64,000 bases of DNA from a virus (IMGVR_UViG_3300045988_056936:1-64000), one strand, 5' to 3'. Shown: positions 3,201 through 60,700, numbered from the stretch's first letter. Notes: generated from the sequence alone by a model not told the origin. A program made the numbers and translations.

Positions 3201-5778
3201 GTGACGTCATATACATAGTAATATGTATCAGGCTCTACCGTCCCTTCCTCTACTAACTTTAGATACTCTTCTTCAGTTAATGTTACTAAGTTCGGAATAT
3301 CCGATTCAGTAGCAATCTAATCTTCACCTATAAATAATCCTTCAGACCTAACGTCTACTACTAGCTAGCTCTCTCCCTCTACTACAGGAGATTTTATCTA
3401 TCCAACAGTGATGCTTTCTAAGGAACCATTCCCATCTACCTTTAAAGTCTTATCTAGCTCATCTTGAATAGCCTATTGGTCTTCGTCATACTATTTCTTT
3501 GTAACAAAGACAAAATCATCTCCTTCCATTCCTTCTCCTCTAAGACTTTCTTTGGTAACAAATATGTCATCAGTTTCTTCCTTAGTATAATGGTTAGATA
3601 AGGCTTTAGATAACAAGGACTCTGGGTCCTCTAAATCTAGATCAGTTTTAGGGGCATAATTCTCAGTTAACTCTTCAAGGGTAGCATACTTGGAAAGGTT
3701 AGAGATTGTCTAGTCTAAATCCGTTCTAATCTGTACGACAGTAGTATTTAGAGCTTTCTATTTCAACTATTCCTCTATCTTTTTACCCCATTCTGCTGAT
3801 AAGTAAAACTAATCATCATCTAGGCTGTCTTCATATATATAATAATATGTTTCTGCATGAAGATATGTTTTATCTTCGTCTATAGGTTTAAAATCTTCTG
3901 TGGTATTTTTAGACCATTCCTTATATTCAGCCTCTGTACAGGTGATTATCTAAATAGATTCATAAGAAGCTTTCCAACCTTCTTTGTATTTAATCTTAGA
4001 CTTATCTACTAGCATATAAATATTTCCGTTATCTATATTTGAAACGGTCATGCCTTGATAAGCATATTTCTCCGGAATAGAATATAATTCGTCTAAATTA
4101 TCGACTACTGTTCTATTATCAAGAGGTTTAGGAGTTTCTACGGTTAAAGCAACACCTAATGTAGCATCACCTGTATATTTAAATGCCATTATTGTGATAA
4201 AGTAAAGTTAATTTGATGAGGCAATGCTGAAGAATAAGTATCCTTCTTAGTCCATACTTTATAAGGAAATCCATTTATCTATTCAGTAGAAGTTTCCCAT
4301 CCACTTAAATCAACATTTAGGTATCCTAGTCCTCCATCTACTGTAAATGAATTTAGCTAAGTATTACTTCCAGGTAATTTTATAATAGCCTTTCCACTTA
4401 ATGAAAATGTAATAATTCCAGAAGATTGTCCAAATGGAACAAGACTCTATTTGATTAAACTATCTGTATTACCAGAATACCAAGGGTAGGTAGCAGTCAC
4501 CTATGCTGTAGTTGATATTGAACCAGCCTCCACCCTCTTGTCTGTAACCTCTCCCTTGTTGTTAATAAGATATTCTCCAGCAGCATAATTTACGGTACCA
4601 GAATGCACATAAACACCGATAGAATCATATGTTTCAGATTCTACAGGAGAATCATTATAGGTAATAGTTTCTTCTCTACCAGTTTCCTCTCCAGCATCAT
4701 TTTTTATAAATGTTAAAGTAGGGGTAAGTAAAGCGGATCCTACCTCCACAATCTAAGAGGTGAAGCTATAATACAACTAAGGATAAACCAAATCTCTAAC
4801 AACAGTAGGAAATAATAGAGTGTCTATAATCTCATTAAACGGCTTTCCTTTCAATTTTTCAACTGTAGTTCCTTGAATAACAGTAGAAGTAGTATCATCT
4901 GGAAGTTCAGTTTGATAAGTAGCTATAGTTTCTAAACTTGTCTATATATTTGTGATATTCTCAGTATTAGAATCTACTTTAGAATCAGTGTTCTTCTAAG
5001 CTTCCTATACTCCCTTAACTTCTTCCTTTACCTCTGTTAGAGATGGTTCCAGGTCTTTTACATATATTCCAGGTAGAACTACTGTGGAAGGTTCTCCTTC
5101 CTCCTCTACTGGAGGAATTTCCTACTGAATCAGATGTATTGCATTATCCTCCTACTAAGATAGAATTACTTCTAGAGTATTATCATCCTTTATTTCTATG
5201 GTTTTGGAGTTTCTTAGACTATTAGTTATCCAATTCTAGATGTTTTTGTCAACATCTATATTTTTGATAGACTCATTAATATCCTCTATTGCCTCATTAA
5301 TCTAGGTTATTTTCTCAGAAAGATTGTTTATGCCAGTTCTGTTAGATTCAATTTCTTCTTCAAGTTCTTCCTTAAGTACAGTAATAGAAGTTCTGATATT
5401 ACTTATATCAACTTTTATTTCCTCTATTTCTTCTGTATTAGCTTCGTACTAACTTATAAAGAATAAAGCATAATCTAAGGCATCTTTTACAGTATTGATA
5501 TTCTCTGCAACATCACTAGTATAAGTCCATTTCTATTCTATGTACTATACTAAATCTTTCTAGGCTTCTATAGTTCCTTCTATATTTCCCCAAAGAAGAC
5601 TCTACTCATCAGCGATACCTAGATTCTTTCTAACCTTAGCTCTTTCTAATTCAGTTCTATATTCTCCAAGATAGTTGTTTCTTAGGAGAGGTATAGGTTC
5701 ACTTTTTATTAAATGTCCTTTCTTTCCACAAGGCTTTATATCAGCATTGCTTACCGAAGTATAAATAGGCTGTATCAT
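284..5778 (-). CDS. Tail fibre / receptor-binding protein, possibly more than one gene, TAG-recoded, with the DGR variable region at the C-terminus. The 5' boundary is uncertain (candidate ATG at 5776-5778)
   Basis: ORF-track fragment 287..1459. My manual translation upstream continues in frame through TAG codons at 1493, 1631, 1712 and 1745 with no TAA or TGA. It yields ...YTETEKQKLSGIADNANNYVHPTTSGNKHIPAGGALG(Q)ILTF..., a phage tail-fibre-like motif. The C-terminus carries VR1. Confidence 0.45.
314..410 (-). repeat. DGR variable repeat VR1 at the extreme 3' end of the tail-fibre gene. GC-rich island
   Basis: Differs from TR only at TR adenines. Encodes ...LVGGSAGNGGYAGLGYFHSSYDVGGADSIVGFRTLN, then RVS and a TAA stop at 284-286. 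Its GC content stands out in an AT-rich genome. Confidence 0.85.
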
Positions 5779-5779
5779 T

Positions 5780-8700
5780 ATGATTCAATAATTGCTATTT
5801 AATAAATTCGTGATTATCTAATTTTACGGGTAGGTTAATAAAACAAATTAGATTCAAAATATCCTAATAATCTGGTCTATATCCCTTTCTAACCCTTTTA
5901 AGGAAATCCTCATACCTTTTAATAGCCTTTCTTTTAAGAGCATCCACAACCTATACGTTTATGTTCATGGTGATTGTCACAGAATCCACCGCAAGTGCGG
6001 AACATTGCTAACAATCTTTCAGCTTCCATGAATTGTTTAAAGCCTATTAAATAATCTATAATGTTAAGTGTCATCCAGATAAAATCTCTTGCAAATATAT
6101 CTGCATCATGTTCTCTAGTTAGACACTTATTTAATAAAGAGTCAAAGAGTTTCTTACAGTAGTTAATATAACACTATTGCAGATTTCCTGTAAAGAATAC
6201 ATCTACCTTACATTTTTTGATAGTAGTTCCTTCTATATTTCTCTCAAGGATTTCTTTTACAGTACATTCCTCTAGCTCTCCATCTACTTCTTTATATAGT
6301 TTCTCTCCATCAGTTATATAGATAGTTTCATAATACTCCTTGTATTCATCAGATGAATTTTCATACCATTTCATATTAGGAAGAATTATGTGGTCTACTA
6401 CATAATATCCATCTTCTTTCACCTTAAATGTACAAGAGTCTAAATCCTCTGTATGGTCATTGAGAAGTACGTCTATCAAAGTAGCATCTCCTATACTAAC
6501 TTTTATGATAGTATTTAGGGTAGCACTTTCACTATACTTATAAGAATCATAGGAAGTTACTACCTCTAAATCTTCATCAATATACTATCCATATTCCTTT
6601 GAAAAGTCTTCAATAGTTATTTCCCCGTTAATCTGGGTATGTATATCAATACTAAATTCCATATTATAATAATTAAGACTCAGTAGTAGGCCATTGACCA
6701 TATTGAGCAGGAGTAGAAAATGGTTTCCACTTACCTTCTTGTCGTATACGTCTAGACATAAAAACTGAACTAAATGATAAACTAATATCTTGAGGATAGT
6801 CTGTCCATGTATATGACTAACCTTCAGGAGTCGGTGGTAGACTATTTAATTTACCAGCTGGTTTCCCATTCCAATAATAATTATAGTCATATGCCTTAGT
6901 TGGAGTAACAGTCGTTGTTTCATGTCCTTCTAAATCTACATATAGAGGATTTCCATCCTCATCTGTTTTCTGCTTATACTCAATAACTGGAGTTATTCCC
7001 TCAGTTCTAGTGTATATATTCTAGATAATAGTAGAAACATCGCTTGCCACAATCTCATAAATAGTAGTTCCCTGAGATTCGTCAGCTCCCTAGAAAGTAA
7101 ATTTAGTTCTTTTCCAGATGTATGGATTCTCTTCAGTTGGAAGTTCAAAAGTATCAGTCCACTATTTAGTAGATAATTTTATCTCAGATTCTTCAGCAGT
7201 ATCAGCAGGTAAGTAATGAATCTTAATAATAATATTATTTACCGCTTCACTAGAACCAGAAAGATCTGACACCTATTTAAATAGTTTCTTTAAATCTTCT
7301 TCCACATTTGATTTGGAACCAGAAGCATTACTAATAATTACTGAACCATCTGAAATAGGATAAATCTATTGCTAATCCTTATTATATACAATTGTTCCAG
7401 TTGCCATATTAATGTATTTGTCTTATTTTGTCATTATATGGATTTCCATCATGAAGCTAAGCTAACTCTATTTCAGTTCTCTTTTCTTCTATATCCATTT
7501 GTCTATCTTTATATGTAGAATCAGATTGAGCTTTGAGCCAGTTAACTTTATATTCTAACTACATTTTCTGCTACTCTAATCCTAATCTCTATTCATCCAA
7601 ACTTTCTATCTTCTACTAAGCTTTCTATAGTTCTTGCTGTAACTGCTGTGCCTATTGTGAAGTTTCTTCCAGTTTTTCCTATAGCTGCTATAGCTAATTG
7701 TTTTCTTCTTTACGAATCTATACTGCTTTCTTAACCTTATATTTAAGGTCTGTAAGACTCTTAGCAGTTAGTGCTTCAAATATGATGTCAGGATCCATTT
7801 GCTGACTTTTAACAAACTCTGGAATAATAGCTTTAATAGTTTGTAAATCTTCCATTACTTCAGAGCTAGAAGTTATATGGATGTCATAATCAGTAACCGT
7901 AAAATACTCTGGAAGCGCTGTAAATATCTGCTAGTATTTATCTCCAAGTATAATAGTACCAGTCAATCCTTTCTTATATGTTATTTTAGCCTAGTTTAGA
8001 CTATCCAATAATATCTCACAAGTGATTAGGTCCATCTACTAGAAATAATGCTTGGTTACTATGTAAGAGTTAGTAACACCTTGCTTAATATTAGTTACAG
8101 CATCGTGAGTTTCTATTCCATTTAATCTTTCTCTAAATACTCCAGTTATAGATGATGTAGTTTGTTCTACTGATTGAATTGCTAATTCAATAGCCTATAC
8201 AGCCTAAGCTTTTAAGGTATCATCAAATCCATTGTATATCTAGTTAGGTGCTTGCGCTCCATCATTTCTTCCCTCCTAAGTGGAATCAATCCACATGATA
8301 CCACCCTTCTTGTATGCTAACCATTTCTACACTCTTTCTGGCCATTTTACGCCTAGGTTAGTAGGAAGCAATGACATATCCATGATTACTCCAGCAGTAC
8401 CGCTGTTAGCTATCAGGTTGTCCCTATAATAATTTAACAAGTCATATCTATCCTGTAGATGTGCACACTTTAATATCAGAGAGTACGGTTGTTGGGAACG
8501 ATTTAAGAAATATACCCCATTCACAGACAAAGAGCAGAAATTAGGATTATCTTTCGACCTCATAACAGTCTTGTCTAGACCTCTCAGAATATATATTTCT
8601 TCTCCAATTCTAATGGTATTGTATCTCTACATTACAAAATCGTCATCAGTTTCTATCCACTCTACATCATAAACAGGAATTAACTAAAATCTATGAGCAC

Positions 8701-16350: not shown

Positions 16351-17504
16351 ATTATACTTTGTATCATAAGTACAAGTGATTCTATTTATACCATCCTCCC
16401 ACCAAGGTTTATCTGATGGCTATCTAATACCACTTGGGATGGTTATTGTAGGAGTAGAAGTTTCTACTATAGCATCTACTATTTTAAATAATGTATCCAA
16501 GTCAAATTCTGGAAATTCATTATGTAAGTTTGTCAATGTCTTTTTAAAGTCTATCATATCCCTCAAATGTATTATCAATTATTGCTTTTTCTAGTGTAGT
16601 GTCTTTATATAGTCCATTTTTAATTAGATTTCTAACTGAATTGTCAACTACATTCCATATATCAATCAGTAATGATTTATTCTCCGGAACACTTCTAAGT
16701 GTACTTTCTAAATATCCGGCTTTTATCATATTTATTAGTTGACCGTTAATAAAGACTTCAAATTTAAATTCTTTATCCATATATTTTAGTATATTACACT
16801 TAGTCTATTTAATTCATCTAGGTAATCTAGAAACCATTGTTCATTTTGTTTTCCTTCTTCTGCAACAATCTCAATTAAAGATTCTGCTGCTAGGAGTATA
16901 GTTTCAGATAACTCTTTTAAATTTGGCTTAGTTAGTTCATTGTATTTATCAGTCAAGTTTAACATAATCCATCCAGTCTTTTATATATGATTTACATTCC
17001 TCTAAATCTGGATAGATACTTGCTATAGTGCAACCTGTTTTTGGATTCCTAAAATGATGGAGTTTTGCTTCCTCATTTTTCTCCTCTTCTATATTTCTAT
17101 TTAATGTTCTATTCCAGTAGTTGTATTTCTCATCTAGCATTTCCTTATCACACTCCTCCAATATTTTCATATTGGGATTACTCATTATTTTGTCATACTT
17201 TCTTTTTAAATTAGAAACTTTGACAACATCATTACCATTCAATACGACTGCACACTGTTTCATTTCACTACTTTATAAGTACATATCTTACCTATCTGCT
17301 TTCCTTGAATACTTATTTGTGGAAGAAAGTAGCAGGCTTGATTCTCAAATTCTTGAGGTACAAATATGTAATCAAATCTACATCCAACTACCTTATCGCA
17401 AACTTTATTCCAATCATCTCCCTCTTCAATAATAAGGGTCTTAGCTCCTGTTGGAGTTACAGCATAATTCTCATTTAAATTTATCATAACTATTAATTTT
17501 GGCG

Positions 17505-17576
17505 TTGCCCTACTAGGATTCGAACCCAGACTAAATGATTTAGAGTCATCTGTGCTGACCATTACACCATAGGGCA
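17505..17576 (-). tRNA. Amber-suppressor tRNA, anticodon CUA, tRNA-Gln-derived
   Basis: Manual cloverleaf: acceptor TGCCCTA/TAGGGCA (U1-A72) with discriminator A; D-arm GGTGTAATGGTC; anticodon stem GATGA/TCATT with loop CTCTAAA (U33, CUA, A37); T-arm CTGGG-TTCGAAT-CCTAG. The D-arm and acceptor are near-identical to tRNA-Gln(UUG) at 32536. It sits at the 5' head of the TAG-rich minus-strand block. Confidence 0.8.
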
Positions 17577-18240
17577 GTATTTATTTCTCTTTTAGAGATT
17601 TATTCTCCGCTGCCAATTTCTCTAGTTCTTTCCTTAGCTGTTCGTTTTCGTGAAATAAAGCCTACATGGTTGCATTTACATTAGCAAGGAGTATTCTTAT
17701 TTGAGCTATTTGTTCATACATATGCTTTCAGTTGTTCTATTTTCATAGTTACCACATTAGATAATGCCATTCTGAATTTAGTAATTCCAGCTCTTACTGA
17801 TTCCAATTTTCCACTTTCCAAACATTCTTGAATTTTATTTAGTTCGGATTCCCCTAGATATTCGCAGACATCTATAAATAAATCATCATCTAAAGATTCT
17901 AAGTATTTCTGGAATTTGCCTACTTCTTCATTAGCTAGACAGCTTTCCTCTTTCTATCTCTCATAAGATATTAATAAGAATAAAGAATCATCTGTAGATT
18001 CCGCTTTAATGGTTAGACCATTACTTGATAGATAATACTCCTAGTTCTTATTAATTGCATCAACGAGATTCTTAAACTCGTCCTAATTTAGTAATGTTTC
18101 TAAGTCTGTAATCATAATTGTTTCTTTTTTAGTTATATACAACAATACCTTCTGAAAAGTTAAATACAAAGTTAAAAAATTCTAATTCTAATATTATACA
18201 TATTTCATTTAGTTATCCGCAAATGGGTACAGGTACTTTA

Positions 18241-18249
18241 TATAAATAG
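18241..18249 (+). promoter_or_regulatory. TATAAATA(G) motif, copy 1 (T4-late-promoter-like box)
   Basis: ttatataaatagcc, about 190 bp upstream of ORF 18434. Confidence 0.25.
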
Positions 18250-18433
18250 CCCCCTGGGGGTTTAATAAATTCGGAATTTATATACAGGTGAAAATTACCT
18301 AGATTCCGAAAATTATATGAGAGACTGTTATGGCGGTCCACAACCCCTTTAGTCCCCCCCTGTATATTGATATAAAACTAAAACAAAAACAAAAGTAACT
18401 CACAGTATTAACAAATTAAAAATTTTTAGTATT

Positions 18434-18880
18434 ATGACACTCGAAGAATTAAAGAACAGTAATCTCAGCGTAGAAGAACGTGCTAAATCAGTGGTAAACT
18501 CATTAGGTTTGGAAGGTAATGAACGTTCAGTTGTTGTCGGCTTGAAGAAGGGCGATAAGTTCCAGATTGTTGCTATGAACAAAATGGAATTGACAAACAA
18601 CACACAAAGAGAAGGACAAGCAAGGTTTGTGCCTATCACTTTCACAACTGACAGTGGTGCATCAATCGGAGCTAAACACTTCGCTGGCGTAACTATCGAC
18701 GACGAAGCTCCTGCTATTGGTTCTACTCCTTTGGAAAATGCAAATTTCCTTGTTTGGTGCATAGACCACAAAGTAACATTTGTGGTTAAGAGCATCACCT
18801 CTGAAGACATCGAGGCACACGGAGGAGTTCCGGCTTACACCAAGAGAACTTACAAACTTGAGGTTGAGGATTACGAGTAA
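18434..18880 (+). CDS. Hypothetical protein. First gene of the rightward arm, likely early and abundant
   Basis: A 148-aa ORF with no internal TAG, directly downstream of the divergent promoter region. Confidence 0.5.
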   Translation: MTLEELKNSNLSVEERAKSVVNSLGLEGNERSVVVGLKKGDKFQIVAMNKMELTNNTQREGQARFVPITFTTDSGASIGAKHFAGVTIDDEAPAIGSTPLENANFLVWCIDHKVTFVVKSITSEDIEAHGGVPAYTKRTYKLEVEDYE

Positions 18881-19140
18881 AAGATTGGGGAGAAATCCCC
18901 TTTCTTTTATATACAAATAATCTTTGTAGTTATGGACACGAGAAAAAAGTTCAGAACGAGAAAGTGTTTGTATAGCTGGGGAGCAATCTATGACCCAAAG
19001 ACTGGAGAAAAGTTAAATCTCAAAGCGGACAGAGTTTATTGTAAAACTTCTGAAGCATGGATTATGACTTATCAAAAGTCAGAAGAAGACATCCCAAAAG
19101 TAATAAGAATTGTCTTTGTAGATTAACACGACTCTCTCGT

Positions 19141-49508: not shown

Positions 49509-51204
49509 TTAGAGGACTTCCGTAGGAAGCTAACATAACATACTTAACAGGAATAATTATGAACAGTATATTCTTAAATCCGCATGGATTTAATCTTTAT
49601 TCGCTGGCTACACAAAAATTTACAACCTACTCTCTAATTGAGAGTCTTTGTCTTAGTCTTTGTTAGTGTAGCTAGGTCTTTGACTACGGCTTCATCTTTG
49701 CCTGCGCGTTAGCTTCCTACATAGCTCGTCAACCACGTGTTGAAGGAGTTACGGAATCCCTTCGGGATTCTAGCCTTTTGCTTCAGTTACAAGTAATCTT
49801 TAAACTTGGTGACTATTATCCCAAATTCTCAACAAGATGAAGAGGGAGGTTGACCAACCTAATAATGGTACAAGCTCTTCGGAGTGATAGGAGTGGGGAA
49901 AGTATCTGGTGAAGCACAGATACTGGAACCACTCTTTTTTTTGATAGATAAAATGATTATTAACTAATTTAAATTAAGAAAAATGAAGAAAGTACTATTG
50001 CTTTTCGGAATGGTTGCACTGATGTCTGCTTGTGCAGGTAATACAAAGACTCAGGCTCCAGAAAACGATTCTATCGCAATCGTTAAAGAAGTTGCTGACA
50101 CAATGAGTGTAGACACTCTAGGTGTGGATAGTCTTGTAATTGATAGTATTCAGTAATATGGATTTTATCGCAACCAGAGTCAATGAACTCTTAAGTAGGG
50201 TATCTCCTATTAAGCGATGGCTTATTTCTGATGTTGCGAATGAATACTATCGAGCAGGATATCAAGATGGTCAGAAACTAGTCTACAGAAATGTGTTAAA
50301 GGGAAGCGCATTGAGAGAGTTTATCGAAATTCTAAATCATTGCGGAATTAAACTTAGTTACAACTTACGTAAGGGTGGGCTACTGGTCAGTGTAAGAACT
50401 GATAAGTTGTCCAACTTACAGAATCTTGTTAATTGTTACAAAAATGAGCAAAACAAAGAGAACAGTCCTGACAAGGGATGATTGTCCCCCATTGGAGGAA
50501 CAATACAAAAGCATTATGGAGAACTTTGATTTTGATAAGGTTCTGGAGTATATGCAGTGGGACAAGAGTCATAGAGAATATGATGACGAGGGTCGCTGTA
50601 TAGGCAAAAGTACATGGAAAATGTATGTAGGTCCGAACGAACACAGAGTTCCCACTCTTTACGAACTATCCAGAAATGCTAGCGTACTACTAAGAGAAGT
50701 AATGAAGCTGTACAATGACAACAAAAGTCCTTATCTTTCTATAGCTACTGGACCATTCAAGGTTATTTGCAGATATGGGATGCTGGAACTTATAGCTTGC
50801 CTAGAAACTTGGAGTTATGATTGAATTTAATCAGATTTTTTGTGAGGATTTGAAAGATGATTTCGAGGAAGCTGGTAGGCATGAGAGAAATTTCGAGTTA
50901 GACGAGTTTATTCAGAAGGATTTAAGTAGAGCATTTGCGTTTGGTTATTGTCATTTAGACTGGATAAAGGAGAAAATGTGGTTTCCTGTTCCTATTAGGA
51001 AGGCTTTACGGCATTTAGGGGACGACCTAGAAGATTTTGCTCCTCAGCTTAAATGGCTTAACGAAAAATATGGTGCTATAGGAAAGAGAGTTAGAATTGT
51101 TGATTATGCAAACTATATTTTAGATAATATATTTTGTGACAATCAAGACGATTTGCTAAAGATAGCAATATTACTCGGAACTAACATGAGAGTAAATACT
51201 GCTG

Positions 51205-51648
51205 ATGAGCAGGCTAGAAGTGTTCACTGATGGAGCTTTTAGCTCGTCTAGAGACACAGGAGGAGTAGGAGTTGTATTCGTAATTGATGGGGAAAAAGCC
51301 TATGAATTTAGTAAGATGATTCCTAATACTACTAATAATAAATGTGAGTTGTTAGCAGTAATTTATGCTCTAAATGCAGTAAGTCGTAAAATCGAATCTC
51401 TGACTATTTACTCAGATTCTCAGTACGTCATAGGATGTGCTACTAAAGGATGGAAAAGAAAGAAGAACGTAGAGTTATGGAATTTATACGACAAGGTCTT
51501 AAATAAGGCAAAGCAATTTTGTCCTAATATAGATTTTTGTTGGGTGAAAGGACATACTTCAAGTTCAGACTTCTTTTCTCAGATGAATAATCTCGCAGAT
51601 AAATTAGCAGTTGAAGCAAGTCAGGAATATGAAACTAAGAAAGAATAA
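51205..51648 (+). CDS. rnhA: Ribonuclease H (RNase HI)
   Basis: ..VFTDGA.. (Asp1), ..NNKCELLAVIYAL.. (Glu), ..IYSDSQYV.. (Asp), ..WVKGHTSS...NLADKLA.. (His/Asp). Classic RNase H1 motif order. Confidence 0.75.
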   Translation: MSRLEVFTDGAFSSSRDTGGVGVVFVIDGEKAYEFSKMIPNTTNNKCELLAVIYALNAVSRKIESLTIYSDSQYVIGCATKGWKRKKNVELWNLYDKVLNKAKQFCPNIDFCWVKGHTSSSDFFSQMNNLADKLAVEASQEYETKKE

Positions 51649-52061
51649 GAATAAGAAACTTATCAAAGAAGCTATGAAGTTTTATCCATTCGATTATGGA
51701 TTTGTTCTCTCTTTAGAGAAACAAGCCCTAATTAGAATGTATGAATACTTTAAGGTATCTAGAATTGCGGAAGGCAATGAACGTGTCGAAAAAGAGCTAA
51801 ATCTAGCACTAAAGCTATTAGATATTGTGCTAGAAATAGATTCTGCGTATCACCATGACTTTAGACCTGGGTCAAAGGGATTTGTAGATAGACACATAAA
51901 TACTAAAAATTGGAATCGATTCCACCCTAAGGCTGCTGATCTCGATTGGAATACTCCAATCCTTAAAGATTATCTGAGAAGAGAAAAAGCCTGGTACTTA
52001 TACAACAAACTAAAGTTTGAACGTATGAGGTCTTGGTGGGATTAATTTAATTAATAGAATT

Positions 52062-53078
52062 ATGAAGAAAATTTTTAGTATTATTTGTTTGTGTTTAATG
52101 TGCGTGTTTGCTAGCGCACAAGTTGTTGAAACTGGAAGTTTGAAAGATAACTGGTATGTTTCTGGTAATGTAGGTACCACAATTTGGGACAACTCAAGAA
52201 GTTGGGCTGAACCTCATGATGTATTAGTAAATATTGCGGTGGGTAAAGAAATTACTCCTATCTTCGGACTAGAGTTAGATATGATGGCAGGTATGAATCA
52301 AGGCAGTAAAACGTTCTTCGATTCCCATAACCTTACAGCTAATGTAACTACTAATCTAACTAATCTTATTTGTGGATACGAAGGCTCTAGACGTTTATTT
52401 GAGCCTGTATTACTGATAGGTGCTGGTTGGTATCATACTTATGGTGATGTTTATAATAATGTATCTGCAAGAGGTGCAATTAGATGCAACTTTAATATTA
52501 CTGATAGTTGGGCACTAAATGTTACTCCAGAGTATATGCTACTTCCAAAGACTACTCCTCTAAATCATGAAGTAAATGTTTATATAGGAGCCACTTACCG
52601 GTTTAAGTCTAATAAAGGAAACTTTCCTATGATGAAACTATATAGTGACGCTGAAGTAGAAAGTCTTAATGCTGCTATTAACGAGTTGAGGGTTAAGAAT
52701 AGCGAATTGGAATCTCGTAAACCAGTAGAAATAATTAAGACTGATACTATAGTAGTTACTAAGGTAGAACTTCTTACACCTAAAATTCAGTTTTTACAGA
52801 ACTCTTCTGAAATCTCTACAACTTCTAATGTTGCAGTATCGGAGTTAGCAGCTTATATTTCAAATAGTGGTAAGTCATATATGATTGAAGGATATGCTTC
52901 TGAAGAAGGTCCAGTAGATTTTAATGACAACTTAGCTGTAGCTAGAGCAGAATCTATGAAGAAGGCCCTTATCAGTTATGGCGCTCCAGAGGATAAGCTT
53001 ATAGTTAAAGGCTGCGGAAGCACTACTGAGTTTGGAGATAGAGAATTTAACAGAATCGTAATCGTAACAGAACAATGA
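52062..53078 (+). CDS. OmpA-family outer-membrane protein (signal peptide, beta-barrel, OmpA_C peptidoglycan-binding domain)
   Basis: MKKIFSIICLCLMCVFASAQ. The C-terminal ..EGYASEEGPVDFNDNLAVARAESMKKAL..GCGSTTE.. matches OmpA_C. Confidence 0.6.
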   Translation: MKKIFSIICLCLMCVFASAQVVETGSLKDNWYVSGNVGTTIWDNSRSWAEPHDVLVNIAVGKEITPIFGLELDMMAGMNQGSKTFFDSHNLTANVTTNLTNLICGYEGSRRLFEPVLLIGAGWYHTYGDVYNNVSARGAIRCNFNITDSWALNVTPEYMLLPKTTPLNHEVNVYIGATYRFKSNKGNFPMMKLYSDAEVESLNAAINELRVKNSELESRKPVEIIKTDTIVVTKVELLTPKIQFLQNSSEISTTSNVAVSELAAYISNSGKSYMIEGYASEEGPVDFNDNLAVARAESMKKALISYGAPEDKLIVKGCGSTTEFGDREFNRIVIVTEQ

Positions 53079-54140
53079 AATACAAGAAAAAAGTAAAATG
53101 GTTAAAGGATAAACAGGCATGGTGGGATAAGCAGGGAAAAGATTTCCAAGCTGCAACCACTAGACCTGGTTCCGTTAAAACTCGATAATCTATGTTAGCT
53201 ATTATACTAGCAATAGTCTTGATAATCGCCTTTATTTATTACGACCCATATGTAGATATTACAGAGGATAATGTCTTATTATGGTATAATGGTAAGGGAT
53301 ATAGGGAATACATTATTCTGTGGTCCAGAAATACTAATTAAGTATGGACGTAAAGATTATGTTGATAAGTGATTGTATAGGAGTTGTGCTCTATGCGCTC
53401 CTATACTATACACTTTATCATACCTATGAACTAGATTATTTAGGTTCTGGAAGGTGGAGAAGGTGGAGAAGAATATCTGTGCCTGGTTGGGCTGTAGTTA
53501 TAGCCCTAGTGAGCCTATGTCTTCCTCCTGTAGCTGTCTCGCTTTCTATAGTAAGCTGGATTATATATATGCTTAAGTTTCTCGGCGATAAATATTACGA
53601 GGTAGACGTTTCTTTTATTAAGTTTTTATCAAACTCAATACATGACACGAATATTTAAACATCTAATTAGGATTATTAAGCATAAATACTGGGTAGCACG
53701 CTATTGTTTCCAGTTAGGTCTTTATTGGCAGGGAATAGTACATGACTGGTCTAAGTTTAGCTATACTGAATTTAGTAGGTCAATAAAGTATTGGGACGAT
53801 ACTATTAGTCCTCTAGCTAATGAGAAAAACATACACGGATATTCTGAAACCTTCCTACATCATCGAGGAAGAAATCCACATCACTATGAATATTGGGTTC
53901 ATAGTTTAGATGAAGGAGGAGTTCCAGCGAAAATGCCAAGAAAATATGCTTTGGAATTAGTCTGTGATTATCTGGCTGCTGGGAGAACCTATAATAAAGA
54001 TTTTACCTATGGGAGTGAGTACAACTGGTGGATTAAATTTCTAAGTTCACCTAGAGCTATACATCCCGAAACCAAGGACTTCGTAACTAAATGCTTTAGG
54101 CATTTGAGTGCCGGAGGTAATATTAAATATTTATTGAAAA

Positions 54141-54965
54141 TTGACTATGAGTAAGATAATAGGGCAAGACAAGTTAATTAAGGAAGTTAATAGAATATTT
54201 CAGGTATTTGTAAATAGTAATTGCAAGATAAGACCGCACTTTATTCTTACAGGTGAGAGCGGGTCTGGTAAGAGCTTTACTATTAAACAGTTATGTGATA
54301 TGAATGAACTTAGCTTTCTAGAAGTTAATGCAGCTCAAATAACTAAAGAGGGTATTTCTGGAAATAGTTTAAGCAAAATTCTATCTCCACTTGTTAACTA
54401 TAGTCACACACCTATTGTAGTCTTCGTAGACGAGTTTGATAAACTTTTCATCAACGGAAACACTAATAGCCAACTGGCTAATGAATCTACTGCCAGTGTA
54501 CAGAACGAGTTTCTCAAACTTTTAGAGTCTGATACTACTAGTGTTTTTGGCGATTATGGGAAGTACATATCAGTCCCTATTGATAATGTACTATTTGTGT
54601 TTGCTGGAGCATTCAATAATGAGCCTCACATTACATTAGATAGACTAAGAGACTTTGGAGTTAAAACAGAGTTTCTTGGAAGAGTAGGATTAATCTACAA
54701 TACTAAACCTCTCACTCTAGAGGATTTGTATTCTATCTTGGAGTGTTCAGACTTGTTGCAGAATTATCTTGACTTATTCTTTAATGTAAATAGAGAACAA
54801 GTCATTAGTGATTTGAAAGGGTATCTCGAAAGTTCTTTTCGCAATAATACTCTTGGAGCAAGAACAATTAATACTCTTATTCACCAATACTTTATCAAAG
54901 GTGGAAAACTCGAAACTGAAGAAGTAAAAGAAATAACTTTTAACAAAAAATTAGAATGGAAATAA
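54141..54965 (+). CDS. AAA+ ATPase (ClpX/HslU-like core)
   Basis: Walker A GESGSGKS, Walker B VVFVDEFDKLF, sensor ..FVFAGAF... Confidence 0.55.
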   Translation: MTMSKIIGQDKLIKEVNRIFQVFVNSNCKIRPHFILTGESGSGKSFTIKQLCDMNELSFLEVNAAQITKEGISGNSLSKILSPLVNYSHTPIVVFVDEFDKLFINGNTNSQLANESTASVQNEFLKLLESDTTSVFGDYGKYISVPIDNVLFVFAGAFNNEPHITLDRLRDFGVKTEFLGRVGLIYNTKPLTLEDLYSILECSDLLQNYLDLFFNVNREQVISDLKGYLESSFRNNTLGARTINTLIHQYFIKGGKLETEEVKEITFNKKLEWK

Positions 54966-56506
54966 TTAATGCTACAGATGGTTACAAGTTGGGCCATCAC
55001 AGAATGTACCCCGAAGGTACTGAACAAGTTTATAGTAACTGGACTCCTAGAAGTAATAAATACTTCCCAGAAGCAACCGAAGGTTCAGTAGTATTTGGTA
55101 TTCAATACCTAATCAAAGAATATCTCATTAAACAGTTTGAGAAAAACTTCTTTAATCTACCAAAGAAGGAAGCTGTGGAGATGTTCTATCGTAGAGTAAA
55201 CAACTTTGTTGGTATTGAATCCGTTGGGTACAGACATATTGAAGCTTTATATGACCTTGGGTATCTACCAATTCGCATAAAGGCTCTTCCTGAAGGTTCT
55301 GTGTGCCCTATTCGGGTTCCCATGATGACCATTACAAATACTCTACCCGAGTTCTTTTGGTTAACTAACTACTTAGAGACTATTATCAGCTGTACCTTGT
55401 GGATGCCATGCACATCTGCTACTAGAGCTAGGCTTTATAAGAAAGAGCTACATCGTCATGCTTGCAAGACTGGTTTTCCAACAGATGTAAATCTTGGTTT
55501 TTGTTGTCATGATTTCTCAATGCGAGGTATGGCGGGAATGGAAGCCGCAATTATATCTGGTATGGCGCATATGACTTCTTTTGTGGGAAGTGAAACTATT
55601 CCAGCTATTGCTGCTTTGGAAGAATATTATGGAGCTAATTCAGACGAGGAATTGATTGCTGCTACAGTTCCAGCAACAGAACACTCTGTAATGTGTGCTG
55701 GAGGGGAGGAAGATGAGCTGGGCACTTTCAAACGTCTAATTAATGATTTGTATCCTTCTGGGTTTGTTTCTATTGTATCTGATACTTGGGATTTCTGGAA
55801 TGTAATTGAAAATTTCTTGCCCAAGCTGAAGAAAGACATTATGGCTCGTGATGGTAGAGTAGTAATCCGTCCTGATAGTGGAGACCCAGTAGATATAATC
55901 TGCGGGTTGAGAACTAATCCTCACTTCAATACCAGAATGAAAGAAGGTAAGTATTATTGCTGCTATGCTCCGTTTAACGACGATGCAGAGTATGTTGAAG
56001 TGTCCGAAGGTCAATATTATGGGGCATATTATATGCTTGGTAAAATCTTCGGATGGAATACTACTTCAAAGGATTACCGTTATCCTAGCACTAAGGTTGG
56101 TCTGCTTTATGGAGATTCTATTACTCTGGAACGTCAAAAGCAAATCTACTTGAGATTAGAAAACGCTCATATGGCGGCTTGTAATCTCGTTCTGGGAGTA
56201 GGTTCATATTCCTATCAGTATGCAAGTAGAGATAGTCTTGGGTTTGCTATTAAGGCTACTGCTTGCGTAGTAAATGGCGAATTGAAAGAAATCTTCAAAC
56301 ATCCTAAAACTGATGATGGTACTAAGAACTCTTTGAAAGGTTTGATTGCTGTCTATAAATGTCTGGATGGGAAGTATACTGCTACCGACCAGGTCTCAAT
56401 CGAGGAGGAAAAAGAGGGATGCTTAGAGACTGTCTTTGAAGATGGTATCTTGAAGAAAGAATATTCTCTTGAAGAAATCAGACAAAGAATTGACCATGGA
56501 CTTTAA
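54956..56506 (+). CDS. nadV: Nicotinamide phosphoribosyltransferase family protein (NAMPT/NadV-like; candidate Namat of an NAD+ reconstitution pathway)
   Basis: N-terminal ..INATDGYKLGHHRMYPEGTEQVYSNWTPRS.. matches the NAMPT start (ATDSYK..H...YP). Length 516 aa. Confidence 0.75.
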   Translation: MEIINATDGYKLGHHRMYPEGTEQVYSNWTPRSNKYFPEATEGSVVFGIQYLIKEYLIKQFEKNFFNLPKKEAVEMFYRRVNNFVGIESVGYRHIEALYDLGYLPIRIKALPEGSVCPIRVPMMTITNTLPEFFWLTNYLETIISCTLWMPCTSATRARLYKKELHRHACKTGFPTDVNLGFCCHDFSMRGMAGMEAAIISGMAHMTSFVGSETIPAIAALEEYYGANSDEELIAATVPATEHSVMCAGGEEDELGTFKRLINDLYPSGFVSIVSDTWDFWNVIENFLPKLKKDIMARDGRVVIRPDSGDPVDIICGLRTNPHFNTRMKEGKYYCCYAPFNDDAEYVEVSEGQYYGAYYMLGKIFGWNTTSKDYRYPSTKVGLLYGDSITLERQKQIYLRLENAHMAACNLVLGVGSYSYQYASRDSLGFAIKATACVVNGELKEIFKHPKTDDGTKNSLKGLIAVYKCLDGKYTATDQVSIEEEKEGCLETVFEDGILKKEYSLEEIRQRIDHGL

Positions 56507-56933
56507 TCATCCTTTTGGGAAAGAAGCTTGCAAGAAACGACTATTAGAAGAGTATCATAAATACGGAAAGCTAATAGTCGCTTTCGATTTTGATAATACT
56601 ATTTTCGATTACCATAATACTGGCGGAGATTATAGTTGCGTTATAGAACTACTTAAAGAATGCTCACTTCTAGGTTTTGAAATGATTTTATTCACCACTG
56701 ATGAAGATGATTATAAAATTATGGCAAAGCAGACAATTTGTATGCGATTAGGAATAGCAAATATTACTTCTAATACTTTATCTGCTCCAAACATTAGTAG
56801 TTCTATATTCTCTAAATCTAAGAAACCTTATTACAATATCCTCCTAGATGATAGGGCAGGTCTGGAAGAAAGTTATGAAATCTTAAAATATGTAGTAGAT
56901 GAAATTAAACTTAATCAACAAGGAAATCAGTGA
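56469..56933 (+). CDS. HAD-superfamily hydrolase-like protein
   Basis: ..VAFDFDNTIFD.. (HAD motif I, DxDxT). Confidence 0.4.
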   Translation: MKKSDKELTMDFNHPFGKEACKKRLLEEYHKYGKLIVAFDFDNTIFDYHNTGGDYSCVIELLKECSLLGFEMILFTTDEDDYKIMAKQTICMRLGIANITSNTLSAPNISSSIFSKSKKPYYNILLDDRAGLEESYEILKYVVDEIKLNQQGNQ

Positions 56934-57708
56934 AATTAAGTACGATGTTACTAGATTTCCTGATGGAGAGCCTCAGTTTTTCCTTACTGAGGAATTAAAC
57001 AGAAAGGAATCTATTGATGTCATTTGTAGAATATCTAATACTGAGGATTTATTCCTCTTAGTGCAAGTAGGAGATATTTTAGATAGACAAGAAGTAGAAT
57101 GGGATTTACACATTACTTATTTAATGTCTATGCGTATGGATAGAGTAATGAGTTTTAATCGTCCATTCTCCTTGAAAGTAGTATGTAATATGTTAAATAG
57201 CTTAGGCTATAGAAACATATATGTTCTTGAGGCACATTCTAGTAGAACTTTTCATCTTCTTGGTGACAGATGTTTACCTTGGGAATTTGGACACCACTCT
57301 TGGATTCCAGCCCAAAGTAATATCGTGTTCCCAGACCATGGGGCGAAGGACAGATATGGAAGTAACTATTCTCACTATGGTTATTTAGTCTTCAAAAAGG
57401 AAAGAAATCTAGAGACTGGAAGAATTGAGTCCTTTGAAATAGAGGAGTCTAAGAATTGCTACTATTCTACATTTGTGTTCATTGATGACTTGTGTGATGC
57501 CGGAGGAACTTTCCTAGGAGAGCTTAAGGTTCTCAAAGAGAGATATCCAAATAGCAAGTTTATCATAATCGTATGTCACGCAGTTAATGATAAAGGTCTG
57601 ATTAATATGTGTAATAATTTTGACCAGGTTATTGTATCTAATTCTCATAGGGATATTAATTATCGTCCCAGCAACGAGAACTTAACTGTAATAGACGTTT
57701 GTAAATAA
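56899..57708 (+). CDS. Ribose-phosphate pyrophosphokinase (PRPP synthetase) family protein. Candidate ADPR-pyrophosphate synthetase (Adps) partner of the NAMPT-like enzyme
   Basis: N-terminal ..FPDGEPQFFL.. and ..ITYLMSMRMDR.. (Prs FSDGE / PYxxYARQDR). PRPP-binding loop ..FVFIDDLCDAGGTF... Confidence 0.65.
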   Translation: MKLNLINKEISEIKYDVTRFPDGEPQFFLTEELNRKESIDVICRISNTEDLFLLVQVGDILDRQEVEWDLHITYLMSMRMDRVMSFNRPFSLKVVCNMLNSLGYRNIYVLEAHSSRTFHLLGDRCLPWEFGHHSWIPAQSNIVFPDHGAKDRYGSNYSHYGYLVFKKERNLETGRIESFEIEESKNCYYSTFVFIDDLCDAGGTFLGELKVLKERYPNSKFIIIVCHAVNDKGLINMCNNFDQVIVSNSHRDINYRPSNENLTVIDVCK

Positions 57709-60700
57709 CAAAATAAAAATGGTAATTGAAGGTCCTTTTTACAGACTTACTCCCATTAGTGAATCTTCTCCGAGGTTTGACTTGGAATTGTTGTATGATA
57801 TTGGTGGGAAAAATCCGAGAAAAGAATTTAAAGTGGAAGGCTATGGCTATCCCCTAGAAGCTGCTATAGAGCGATGTCGCCATTATGCAGTAAGAAAAAA
57901 GTTCGGAAAAGATGAAGTTATAACTTTAGGTAGGTACTTAGATGAGTTTAAAAAGGCAAAGGAGGAAATTAAACTCGAAGTCTCAGGAGATTCAGGAGAT
58001 TCTAGCGGAGAGGCTGAATAAGCTTTGTAGATTCTTAGATGAGGAATATGACGTTAATTGTGGAGGGTGTTGCTATATAGCATACTGTCTAGCTAGGCTA
58101 CTAAGTAGAGATAAATTCAAGTTCAAAGTCATTATTTACGAGGATTATGAACTAGAAGAAAAGTTTAGCGAAGTAGCGAGAAGTCATTATCATTATGCGA
58201 TTTCTATTGGAAAGTACACCATAAACGCAGCAGATTGTGATGATGACGATAGCTTTTGCAGAAATGTGTATACTGGCGTAAAAGCTTCCGAACTACTATC
58301 TCACTATCAGAAATGTAGCTGGAATGACTGTTATAATACTCAAAAGAATCAATTCATTTTTAAGACTATAAAGGTGTTTTATGACGACCTCACGGAGGAC
58401 TTACGAGAAGGATAAACAAATTGTGCATACGCACGATAAGTTTATCTACTGTAGTTCAGTATATCAAATATGGAGCTGGGGAGCTGCTCTAATGGAAGAA
58501 AAATACTACTCTTCTAATAAACCTATTGTATTGAAAAAGAATCAACTATGTTGTAAGAGGAAGAAGTACTCTTTGCATAGATTCTTTGAATTACAATTTG
58601 CTCCCGAAGAATATTTAATTAATAACGGTTTTAAAATTGTAGAAAATGAAACAGGATGTGATTGAGTACATGGTAGACTCATTTGTAGACTTTAAGGGTG
58701 AAGAACGTAAAATTGTAGCTTGTGCTTTAAGTCAGGCTGCTGAAGTAAGTGAGGATGATTGTGTCTTAGCAGTAGGTTGGGTAGCTCCCGATGAATACAT
58801 ATGCACAAATGATCCGGACTATGCTAGAATCTGTAGAGTAGTAACCGTTGGTATTGCAGTATGTAATCCTAGTGATACCTTCGATTTGGCTAAGGGACAG
58901 AAGAAGGCTTACGATAAGGCTCTTCATGATCCAAAGTGTCCAGCTATTTATACTACATCTAGAGGTGTAGCAGGTAAAGTGCTGGTAAAAGCATTCTTGG
59001 AACAGGAGCTTACTTTCTTGAAAGAAAATCCAGAGCGTATCATTAAGGGGTATAACCAAATGAAAGCTCGATTCGAAAGAAAAGAAGCCCTCAAGAACGA
59101 AATCAAAAATCTCTCTGATAAAGAGAAGCAAGCTTTGAATCTAGCTAAAGAAGGTATAGATGTAGTTAAATGCGCTGAACTGGTAACTAAAGCCAAGGCA
59201 ATAGGCGTTGAGCTAAATGAACAGGACTAAGTTTTGCTATATCTTAATAGCCTTGATGGGATTGCTAATTATTTATTTGCTAATACCTAAGAAGGAAACC
59301 GCAGTTTCTCCGCCTAATGTGCAGGAAATAGTAAGGGATTCTATAATTAGAGATAGCATCTATATAGTTAACGATTCCATCGTGGAGAAAATTAAGTATA
59401 TAGACAAAGAGTATGATGAGAAAGTATCTACTATTATGTCTAGTTCTGATAGCATCAATTTGTGCTTTTTCTCAGAATACATCGACCGTTACAATAACCA
59501 GCGAGCAACTAAAAACAACTAATCTGATATTTGCCGAGCATCAGAAGTTGTCTGAAACTGTTCCGTTATTGAATAAGCGAATAACTAATCTAGAACTAAT
59601 AAATAAGAGTTGGGAAAAAACGGATTCTCTTCGTAGAGTTCAGTTACTGTATTATGGAAACATAATTGAAGATAAAAATAGATCTATTGAAGGTCTTAAT
59701 AAGTCTTTAAAAAAGAAGCAGAATGTCATTAAATATGGCGCTGCTGGTTCATGTGTATTAATATTATTATGCCTATTACTGAAGTAATGTTTAAGGACAA
59801 AGATGGTTTTCACTACAAACATCCTGAACGTAGCTGCACTAGGTGTAAGAATTACCCTTGCTTGCCTAACATGGATAAGCTGCAAGGAGACTTCGCTTCT
59901 TATGGTTGTAGGAAGTTCGAGGATATTAATACATTTGAAGTGTGGAAACCAAAGAAGTAACTTACCATGTCAAATTTGTTGCTGAATGTGAGGACGGGAT
60001 GGGATACGCTAATTATGTCTTTGAAAGGCTAGAATATGATAATCTAGATTACAAGGATATAATGTGTGTTCGATTCCCGAATTGGAACCAGTGTTCTATG
60101 AAATTAGGAGATGTCGGCTATGTTTCACTAAGATACGTAGAAGAAGGCATCGATAGATGGTACGATGGTAAAGATTTTGTTCCATACAAGGATAGTAATA
60201 TAATTTTCTTGAAATTTATTCATGAAAAGCCTATCATTGAAGATGGACAAATATTATTAGATTAACATTAAAAAGGAGATAAACTATGAAGTATTTTTAA
60301 AGAATAATTTATGACTGTATTAGGAGATAAGCTGAGAGAGGCTTTGAGCGATAAAGCAAACGACGTTAATAGCTATGTATGGAAAGGACCTAAGGTAAAT
60401 GGGGTCCAGGAGGAAATTAAATTGGTAGACGCAGGTTATGACCAGCTGAGACGATTCTACAATCATTGTGAACAAATGTTGTACAACTCTGATACCAAGA
60501 ATCCGGGTCGTGTAACATTACTCGGAATTGTGCCCGACCAAATACAAAGATGTCGTGCAGAGCTTCTTATTAGATGGCTTAGAGCTGAAAAGCAATACAC
60601 AAACACACGTTGTTTGGAAGACTTGAAAGCTGTTATCAAAAACAATAAGGAAGTGTTAACTAATGAGGCTATTAAGGTCTATCCAATTGGAGAGATTCTT

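Follow-up and report, generated by a model that had tools for sequence, protein, structure and literature searches.

Do the three genes at positions 54956 to 57708 of the viral sequence IMGVR_UViG_3300045988_056936:1-64000 (the window, a stretch of 64,000 nucleotides) encode an NAD+ reconstitution pathway of the NARP1 type, and what would the phosphatase gene that lies between the other two contribute to it? Among the antiphage strategies of bacteria, depletion of NAD+ is one of the commonest, and the answer that phages most often give is NARP1. The initial annotation, made from the sequence alone, had proposed a NARP1-like counter-defense operon of NAMPT-like, HAD-like, and phosphoribosyl pyrophosphate (PRPP) synthetase-like genes, with the HAD phosphatase as an unusual third member. 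All three tandem open reading frames (ORFs) are present there on the same strand, and the strings quoted from the last one are found in its product of 269 amino acids (aa) (RFPDGE, aa 19; MRMDR, aa 78; DDLCDAGGT, aa 196). The best explanation of the locus, to which we assign a probability of about 0.6, is a NARP1-type NAD+ reconstitution operon with an extra phosphatase that supplies ADP-ribose (ADPR).

Identification of the two probable NARP1 enzymes

NARP1 is operationally defined by a homolog of the ADP-ribose pyrophosphokinase Adps and a homolog of the nicotinamide ADP-ribose transferase Namat that are encoded close together (Osterman et al. 2024, bioRxiv 10.1101/2024.02.11.579819). The window carries both on the same strand, and the sole gene between them encodes a HAD protein of 145 aa. 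The Namat candidate, a protein of 516 aa, matches phrog_448 (E = 1e-182) and the Pfam domains NAPRTase and NAMPT_N. What divides Namat from nicotinamide phosphoribosyltransferase (Nampt) is an adenine “selectivity clamp,” which consists of a helix with the motif GS-X-Phi-X-Phi-X-Phi-TRD (aromatic X) and a variable stacking loop (PMC12774641). The clamp helix of the 516-aa protein (GSYSYQYASRD) has S instead of T at motif position 9 and otherwise resembles those of the reference Namats (GSFTYQYNTRD in SpbetaL1 and GSYTYQYVTRD in ICP1), whereas genuine Nampts have GGALLQKVDRD (Xanthomonas) or GGGLLQQLDRD (KVP40) at the same position. In the clamp loop, which is variable and for which the assignment comes from alignment alone, K35-Y36 aligns with SpbetaL1 R40-V41. 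If Lys occupies the Arg40 position, adenine stacking comes from the next residue, as in Bas63 (PMC12774641), and K35-Y36 would fit this “Lys then next residue” variant.

The similarity scores point the same way. The best PDB matches of the full-length protein are 9w5x/9w5w (488 bits), whose sequence matches that of SpbetaL1 Namat in the paper and in Table S4, as compared with about 227 bits for mammalian NAMPT and about 198 bits for Xanthomonas Nampt. Residues 1 to 317 score 351, 304, and 256 bits against the Namats of SpbetaL1, ICP1, and Gary, respectively, and 145 bits against the KVP40 Nampt of NARP2. (The validated reference sequences, used in place of Bas63, were taken from Table S4 of the aRES preprint.) Because the clamp motif is present and the protein is about twice as similar to the reference Namats as to the NARP2 Nampt, we assign it as a Namat and not as an ordinary Nampt or canonical NadV. 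The catalytic residues D8, Y10, F187, S188, R190, R305-x-D307, G386-D387, G416-S417, and R425-D426 are kept, and the catalytic-His segment is PATEHSVM (aa 239 to 246); the core common to Namat and Nampt (Phe/Tyr sandwich, Asp-nicotinamide contact, catalytic His, Arg306/Asp308, GDA, GS, and Arg399) is intact save for D215 to E213, A362 to S, and T398 to S. The Glu lies in GSETIPA (55586-55606), where the SpbetaL1 and human enzymes have Asp. An insertion of about 27 aa (about aa 318 to 355; about 55907-56020) falls in a loop for which the SpbetaL1 structure shows disorder, and Gary Namat has a larger insertion at this site.

The 269-aa protein is assigned as an Adps and not as a PRPP synthetase (PRPS), because it scores below threshold on PRPS models as ICP1 Adps does, has an Adps-type beta-hairpin and PP loop, and has a truncated C terminus. 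With the curated PRPS model TIGR01251 (cutoff, 113 bits), it reaches 58 bits, compared with 423 bits for E. coli Prs, 98 bits for the validated ICP1 Adps, and 70 and 55 bits for the Prs-like proteins of BPS10C and cr126_1; with all PRPS equivalog models, it scores at most 48 bits against cutoffs of at least 296 bits. The motif K-x-R-[DN]-x-x-T-G-x-[IL] of the catalytic hairpin is common to the window protein and the validated SpbetaL1, Gary, and ICP1 enzymes, in place of which E. coli Prs has KRRPRANVSQV. The PP loops read DDICDGAASF in ICP1, DDISDGGASF in Gary, DDLSSFGGTF in SpbetaL1, and DDMIDTGGTL in E. coli Prs; C199 and F205 of the window loop occupy the positions of ICP1 C215 and F221, which contact the donor ATP. 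The alpha11-alpha12 region at the C terminus of PRPS (about 30 to 40 aa) is missing (269 aa versus 315 aa in Prs). F20, R79, H113, D146, K167, and D196-D197 align with ICP1 F18, R87, H121, D161, K185, and D212-D213, and the K185A change in ICP1 Adps abolishes formation of ADP-ribose pyrophosphate (ADPR-PP) (PMC13586617); these catalytic Lys and ADPR-binding residues are mostly kept in PRPS too and are therefore necessary but not discriminating. The initial annotation had held that a Prs-like protein with all canonical ribose-5-phosphate-binding residues would argue against a counter-defense role, yet the loop reads DDLCDAGGT, versus the canonical DD[MI][IV]DT[AG]GT, and the protein is distant from all host-type Prs.

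Several points weigh against these two assignments. E213 of the putative Namat replaces the nicotinamide-contacting D215 of SpbetaL1, a conservative change that is common to crAss-like phages. The putative Adps is very divergent (25 to 28% identity to the validated enzymes) and has M84 at the position of ICP1 F92 and G207 at that of ICP1 F223. In blastp comparisons, it scores 69.7, 64.7, and 63.9 bits against the Adps of SpbetaL1, ICP1, and Gary and 40.0 bits against E. coli Prs, which is a modest margin (64 to 70 versus 40 bits). The PHROG family fails to part Adps from Prs and was rejected as a discriminator (phrog_619 gives E. coli Prs 193 bits and the window protein 176 bits). A PDB sequence search with the 269-aa protein returned canonical PRPS entries alone (E of at least 2.5e-7) and no match to a solved Adps.

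Another possibility is that the locus serves ordinary nucleotide metabolism, in which a PRPP synthetase and a NadV-type Nampt would make nicotinamide mononucleotide (NMN) alongside a generic nucleotidase, with neither ADPR chemistry nor counter-defense. Database labels (“ribose-phosphate pyrophosphokinase” and “nicotinamide phosphoribosyltransferase”) read this way, phrog_619 matches real Prs as well, the PRPS catalytic core is kept (K167, R169, H113, D146, and DD), the DAGGT of the loop resembles DTGGT, and Namats keep some PRPP-dependent NMN synthesis in vitro (PMC12774641). However, the clamp motif is missing from genuine Nampts, the Namat scores are about twofold higher than that of the NARP2 Nampt, the 58 bits fall far from the 113-bit PRPS cutoff in a protein with an Adps-type hairpin and a truncated C terminus, and the 64-kb window has no NMNAT gene for the step from NMN to NAD+. 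We regard ordinary metabolism as very improbable.

With both enzymes assigned, the proposal of a NARP1-type counter-defense operon is supported. A phmmer search with KVP40 NatV of the six-frame translation of the 64-kb window (64 of about 186 kb of the phage) found no NatV/NMNAT homolog at E ≤ 1. In the same translation, a hidden Markov model (HMM) of nine published Adpp sequences found no Macro/Adpp homolog at E ≤ 1, and Pfam detected no Macro domain in the ORFs neighboring the module. Since the window has neither an NMNAT nor a Macro gene, the module is, very probably, NARP1 and not NARP2 or the published NARP1-AP.

The core system is already known, and the window operon is a new divergent member of it in a large gut phage. 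It shares with the NARP1 operons of Bas63, SpbetaL1, and ICP1 (NrsAB) the two enzyme families in one operon, the Namat clamp and catalytic core, and the Adps catalytic Lys, acceptor residues, PP loop, hairpin, and truncated C terminus (bioRxiv 10.1101/2024.02.11.579819; structures in PMC12774641 and PMC13586617). It differs from them in that Namat comes first and Adps last, whereas Adps comes first in Bas63, SpbetaL1, ICP1, and Gary; in the HAD gene, which two-gene NARP1 lacks; and in its probable Bacteroidota host, the experimentally tested NARP1 operons being from other phages. NARP2 (KVP40 NadV/Nampt with the NMNAT-Nudix protein NatV) likewise uses a phage NAMPT-family enzyme for NAD+ restoration, but the window has a PRPS-like partner and no NMNAT/Nudix partner, and its enzyme has the Namat clamp instead of GGGLLQQLDRD. 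The nearest parallel in layout is NARP1-AP of Vibrio phage Gary (Adps-Adpp-Namat; bioRxiv 10.64898/2026.01.28.702374), also a three-gene NARP1 with an optional accessory phosphatase; this 2026 system is not mentioned in the initial annotation. That phosphatase is a Poa1p-like Macro domain, whereas the window phosphatase is a nonhomologous HAD protein with an Asp nucleophile and a Rossmannoid fold.

The window is assigned by similarity to a human-gut phage of about 186 kb; it is 99 to 100% identical to IMG/VR viral contigs of 185 to 192 kb and 99.8% identical to an unannotated “Bacteriophage sp.” record from human feces. The G+C content is about 35%, and the host is probably a member of the Bacteroidota. 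The HAD reading frame is open from a TTG at 56469 (56469-56933 on the plus strand; 154 aa), and the ATG at 56496 (Table 1) is most probably the true start, because homologs open with M-x-FNHPF and near-identical database proteins are 145 aa long. With this start, Namat and HAD overlap by 11 nucleotides (nt) and HAD and Adps by 35 nt, and the overlap of same-strand genes indicates that the three are transcribed as a unit and may be translationally coupled. A promoter and terminator scan of 51000-60500 gave counts that did not differ meaningfully from those of shuffled sequences, with a sigma-70 consensus that is unsuited to the probable Bacteroidota host.

Table 1. Positions of the features discussed in the window and in the bacterial locus L139
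Feature	Sequence	Position	Strand	Description
Namat gene	Window	54956..56506	+	516 aa; NAMPT family; putative nicotinamide ADP-ribose transferase
HAD gene	Window	56496..56933	+	145 aa; predicted capless (C0) HAD-superfamily phosphatase; between Namat and Adps
Adps gene	Window	56899..57708	+	269 aa; PRPS-like; putative ADP-ribose pyrophosphokinase
Namat selectivity-clamp loop (SCL) region	Window	55052..55066	+	SNKYF; alignment to 9w5x and MAFFT alignment
Namat selectivity-clamp helix (SCH)	Window	56201..56233	+	GSYSYQYASRD, aa 416-426; clamp motif
Adps catalytic beta-hairpin	Window	57394..57426	+	KKERNLETGRI, includes K167 (= ICP1 K185); alignment
Adps PP loop	Window	57484..57513	+	DDLCDAGGTF, aa 196-205; alignment
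AAA+ ATPase gene	Window	54141-54965		ClpX/HslU-like; phrog_5534; directly upstream, overlaps Namat start by 10 nt
DUF5662 protein gene	Window	53642-54154		Precedes AAA+ gene; usual direct upstream neighbor of Namat in window-type phages
Outer-membrane protein gene	Window	52062-53078		OMP beta-barrel and OmpA C-terminal domain; signal-peptide-like N terminus
Macro Adpp homolog	L139	4139-4699
Adps	L139	4699-5508
HAD	L139	From 6001		Cut by contig end
Calcineurin-like metallophosphatase	L139	2166-2834		Upstream

The HAD phosphatase and its linkage to NARP1

The HAD protein has no Pfam match and belongs to phrog_1238. The motifs that define the HAD superfamily on a Rossmannoid fold, namely, I (DxDxT/V), II (S/T), III (K), and IV (DD or ExxxD), are all found; D31-x-D33-x-T35, T67, K110, and D118-D119 are invariant among homologs of 27% to 100% identity, and the structure prediction gives a confident model with a HAD fold. 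Its Asp-nucleophile site is intact, and it is predicted to be an active phosphatase. Structural neighbors of the model include the T4 Pnkp 3'-phosphatase and deoxyribonucleotidases, and the other capless HAD phosphatases with which it was compared are the T4 Pnkp 3'-phosphatase domain, KdsC, and GmhB. Membership in the BT0820 HAD-type phosphatase family (NCBIfam NF046079) was rejected, given 20 bits against a cutoff of 165 bits and about 22% identity to BT_0820 (PDB 2obb). RefSeq phage records (NC_055884, NC_023501, and others; phrog_1238) name the protein “phosphoheptose isomerase,” which we also rejected for want of supporting evidence; elsewhere it is annotated as hydrolase, phosphatase, HAD-like, or polynucleotide kinase. 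In an Adps-HAD-Namat locus (L076; 5806-6951), the HAD frame runs on into NUMOD4 and HNH homing-endonuclease domains to give an ORF of 381 aa, which suggests that a homing endonuclease has either invaded the HAD gene or become fused to it.

How firmly is this gene tied to NARP1? Both partners adjoin HAD in 70 of 77 IMG/VR loci (three of the remaining loci run into the end of their contig) and in 31 of 59 bacterial loci, including those of Flavobacteriia, Saprospiraceae, and Paenibacillus/Cohnella. The genes are arranged in five different orders: Namat-HAD-Adps, Adps-HAD-Namat, Adps-Namat-HAD, HAD-Adps-Namat, and Namat-Adps-HAD. The window order is shared by the crAss-like phages cr126_1 and DAC15 (and, by match coordinates, cr111_1 and DAC17). 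Bacillus Herelleviridae have Adps-Namat-HAD (BPS10C was inspected; HAD occurs in 54 Bacillus records), the code-15 gut phage Phass-1 has nicotinamidase-Adps-Namat-HAD, and Vibrio phage VPT02 and Aeromonas phage PhAER-3, in which HAD identity is 27 to 29%, have Adps-HAD-Namat. In Prevotella Lak megaphages, HAD-Adps is found with no Namat within 6 kb; these loci (L007 [Lak-B1], 4998-6358; L069; and L070) consist of HAD and then an Adps-like gene, in alternatively coded genomes of about 540 kb.

Adjacency that is kept through rearrangement and across phyla points to functional coupling of HAD to Namat and Adps, and HAD is probably a functional part of the NARP1 pathway. A different view is that HAD is an unrelated passenger, for instance an RNA-repair or deoxynucleoside monophosphate phosphatase, that entered the operon by chance. 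The structural neighbors named above and the label “polynucleotide kinase” would suit such a gene, as would family members away from NARP1 (23 of the 59 bacterial loci, L074, and L078). Yet neither inherited synteny nor chance accounts for adjacency in five gene orders, in phages of Bacteroidota, Bacillota, and Proteobacteria, and down to 27% identity, and we hold a passenger to be highly unlikely.

Although coupled to NARP1, HAD is optional. In tblastn searches of deposited phage genomes, it was found in 82 records, compared with about 1,477 records with a Prs-like match. It is present in cr126_1, while in cr85_1 Namat is followed directly by Adps; in Kolpuevirus “frurule,” of the same genus as cr126_1, no HAD ORF lies upstream of Adps, where the neighboring ORF may be Namat. 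HAD is also absent from the validated SpbetaL1 and ICP1 operons and from Bas63, whose operon is described as having two genes. Around the NARP1-less homologs (Bacilli metagenome-assembled genomes [MAGs], Pirellulaceae, L074, and L078), we found no informative or recurrent NAD-related Pfam domain. Thus, the description of HAD as an unusual third member stands insofar as the literature searched contains no HAD-NARP1 connection, but it needs amending in that HAD is a recurrent, tightly linked, optional NARP1 gene in many lineages. The conserved HAD partner makes this a new form of NARP1 with an associated phosphatase.

Candidate roles of the HAD phosphatase

In the mechanism that we propose, a host defense (SIR2, TIR, SEFIR, DSR, or similar) would split NAD+ into ADPR and nicotinamide. 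By homology to the characterized enzymes, Adps would pyrophosphorylate ADPR at its 1'' hydroxyl with the beta,gamma-pyrophosphate group of ATP, yielding ADPR-PP and AMP, and Namat would join ADPR-PP with nicotinamide to give NAD+ and pyrophosphate (PPi), its aromatic clamp (Y418, Y422, and K35-Y36) gripping the adenine and so selecting ADPR-PP over PRPP. HAD would dephosphorylate a phosphorylated ADPR species that Adps could not use and would thereby supply ADPR. Candidate substrates are ADPR-1''-phosphate, which would come from RES-domain NAD+ phosphorylases such as aRES, and 2'-phospho-ADPR, which would come from cleavage of NADP+. That HAD makes ADPR from a phosphorylated ADPR is, by analogy, slightly better than an even bet; that its substrate is specifically ADPR-1''-phosphate is a tentative proposal, with odds clearly below even.

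The analogy is with Adpp, the Macro-domain phosphatase that sits between Adps and Namat in 15% of NARP1 operons and turns ADPR-1''-phosphate, which the RES-domain NAD+ phosphorylase aRES produces, into ADPR (bioRxiv 10.64898/2026.01.28.702374). HAD and Adpp share three traits: both are optional, they occupy the same slot in several lineages, and both have phosphatase chemistry. In VPT02 and PhAER-3, HAD fills the slot between Adps and Namat that Adpp fills in Vibrio phage Gary. With the Adpp HMM, a Macro gene was found in 1 of the 139 HAD-bearing loci scanned. In the part of the published list of Macro types that was consulted, Pseudomonas, Vibrio, Acinetobacter, and Pseudoalteromonas phages appear and no Bacillus, Bacteroides, or Prevotella phage does, whereas the HAD type is found mainly in Bacteroidota and Bacillus phages; as far as that part of the list goes, the host ranges of the two types are largely complementary. 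In addition, aRES-like genes are listed for Bacillus, Bacteroides, and Prevotella genomes. Because of the shared traits, the rarity of Macro genes in HAD-bearing loci, the hosts on the Macro list, and the aRES-like genes in the relevant genera, the favored reading is that HAD may be a nonhomologous functional analog of Adpp that feeds ADPR into NARP1.

Other findings tell against so simple a picture. The closest solved structure, BT_0820, has no assigned substrate, and the fold alone gives none. The tie to NARP1 is not obligate, since 23 of 59 bacterial homologs and a few viral ones have no NARP1 within 6 kb. Host lineage confounds the observation that HAD and Macro hardly ever occur together, and strict mutual exclusivity was rejected because of L139 (bacterial MAG contig DAORGW010000032, 2166-6200), the sole locus with both genes, in the order Macro-Adps-orf-HAD. 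The presence of both genes in L139 argues against simple redundancy with Adpp and favors a different HAD substrate; together with the host-lineage confounding, it makes a substrate shared with Adpp a tentative proposal. A further reading, which we judge unlikely, is that HAD forms a second class of phosphatase associated with NARP1 that evolved independently and acts on something other than ADPR-1''-phosphate, e.g., 2'-phospho-ADPR from NADP+ cleavage or another phosphorylated ADPR. If so, an undescribed NAD(P)+-destroying defense chemistry would be implied in Bacteroidota and Bacillus hosts, to which these phages would have adapted, and L139 would encode a NARP1 that accepts three different cleavage products. 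L139 also has a calcineurin-like metallophosphatase gene.

Alternatively, the NARP1 assignment could be right and HAD could have a different function in the pathway. Its task could be to recycle what the labile intermediate ADPR-PP breaks down into, such as the ADPR-phosphate that forms when ADPR-1'',2''-cyclic phosphate opens; it could hydrolyze the PPi released by Namat, which would pull the Namat reaction forward; or it could be an NADP(H) or NMN phosphatase, which would redirect pyridine-nucleotide pools. Tight linkage shows a functional connection and not a substrate, ADPR-cyclic-phosphate is a spontaneous product of ADPR-PP (Osterman et al., bioRxiv 10.1101/2024.02.11.579819), L139 suggests that HAD and Adpp have nonidentical roles, and the varied NAD-related extras of these loci look like flexible NAD-metabolism clusters. 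Among the extras are isochorismatase/nicotinamidase-like genes (L077, 6398-6931; L146 [Phass-1], 881-1426), a fusion of a kinase (AAA_33/dNK) and an NT5C nucleotidase, located between Namat and HAD (L048, 4970-6001), a NUDIX hydrolase gene nearby (L144 [VPT02], 1477-2049), and an NAD synthase neighbor seen in the Pfam scan. However, repair of an intrinsic weakness of NARP1 predicts a nearly universal HAD, whereas HAD is found in some 82 of about 1,477 Prs-like records; the SpbetaL1, Bas63, and ICP1 operons are experimentally competent without it, and an NMN phosphatase would counter NAD+ restoration. An optional, lineage-patchy HAD is better explained as a response to a particular host defense. 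We consider such other roles possible but doubtful, and we retain the supply of ADPR as the preferred function.

Variation, neighboring genes, and implications

The module is mosaic, single operon genes having been swapped by recombination. HAD alleles of 69% identity occur between a Namat 100% and an Adps 99% identical to those of the window (L024-L027, L030, L051, and L086), and in L028-L029 Namat is 98% and Adps 42% identical. In public near-identical phages (proteins P0005 and P0007), in-frame deletions fuse the N terminus of the upstream AAA+ ATPase to HAD and remove Namat wholly (window 54141-56933), with junctions at FVDEFDKLFING/KLIVAFDFD and FVDDFDNT microhomologies; some natural variants have thus lost NARP1. 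MT836666 covers 86% of the 54141-56933 region, in four pieces. In L035 (5478-5990), L049 (5427-5999), and L066, all that is left of Namat is a C-terminal fragment (16 to 73% coverage) upstream of complete HAD and Adps genes and not at a contig end, which suggests that Namat decay is recurrent in viral contigs.

The AAA+ ATPase and DUF5662 genes upstream of Namat were considered as parts of the module and rejected, the former being present in a subset of near-identical phages and the latter confined to window-type phages; neither is conserved with NARP1 beyond the window phage group. Farther upstream lies a gene for an outer-membrane protein, likely a moron, and an outer-membrane protein carried by a phage hints at a Gram-negative host, probably a member of the Bacteroidota. 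GC skew and AT skew reverse sign near 18 kb (window ~17000-19000), which is consistent with a switch from minus- to plus-strand genes at a divergent transcription point.

Bacteria can evade NARP1 by changing the cleavage product, and phages respond with an added phosphatase (bioRxiv 10.64898/2026.01.28.702374). Our findings suggest that NARP1 gained a phosphatase on at least two occasions and from unrelated folds. Of the two versions, it is the HAD one that occurs in human-gut Bacteroidota phages (the window type, crAss-like phages, and, beside Adps only, Lak phages) and in Bacillus phages. The findings also correct a widespread misannotation in crAss-like and Bacillus phages, whose genes are labeled “phosphoheptose isomerase,” “ribose-phosphate pyrophosphokinase,” and “nicotinamide phosphoribosyltransferase,” and HAD would serve as an extra marker for anti-defense gene finders. 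The three-gene operon is a defined, easily cloned way to learn the substrate of HAD and the host defense behind its retention.

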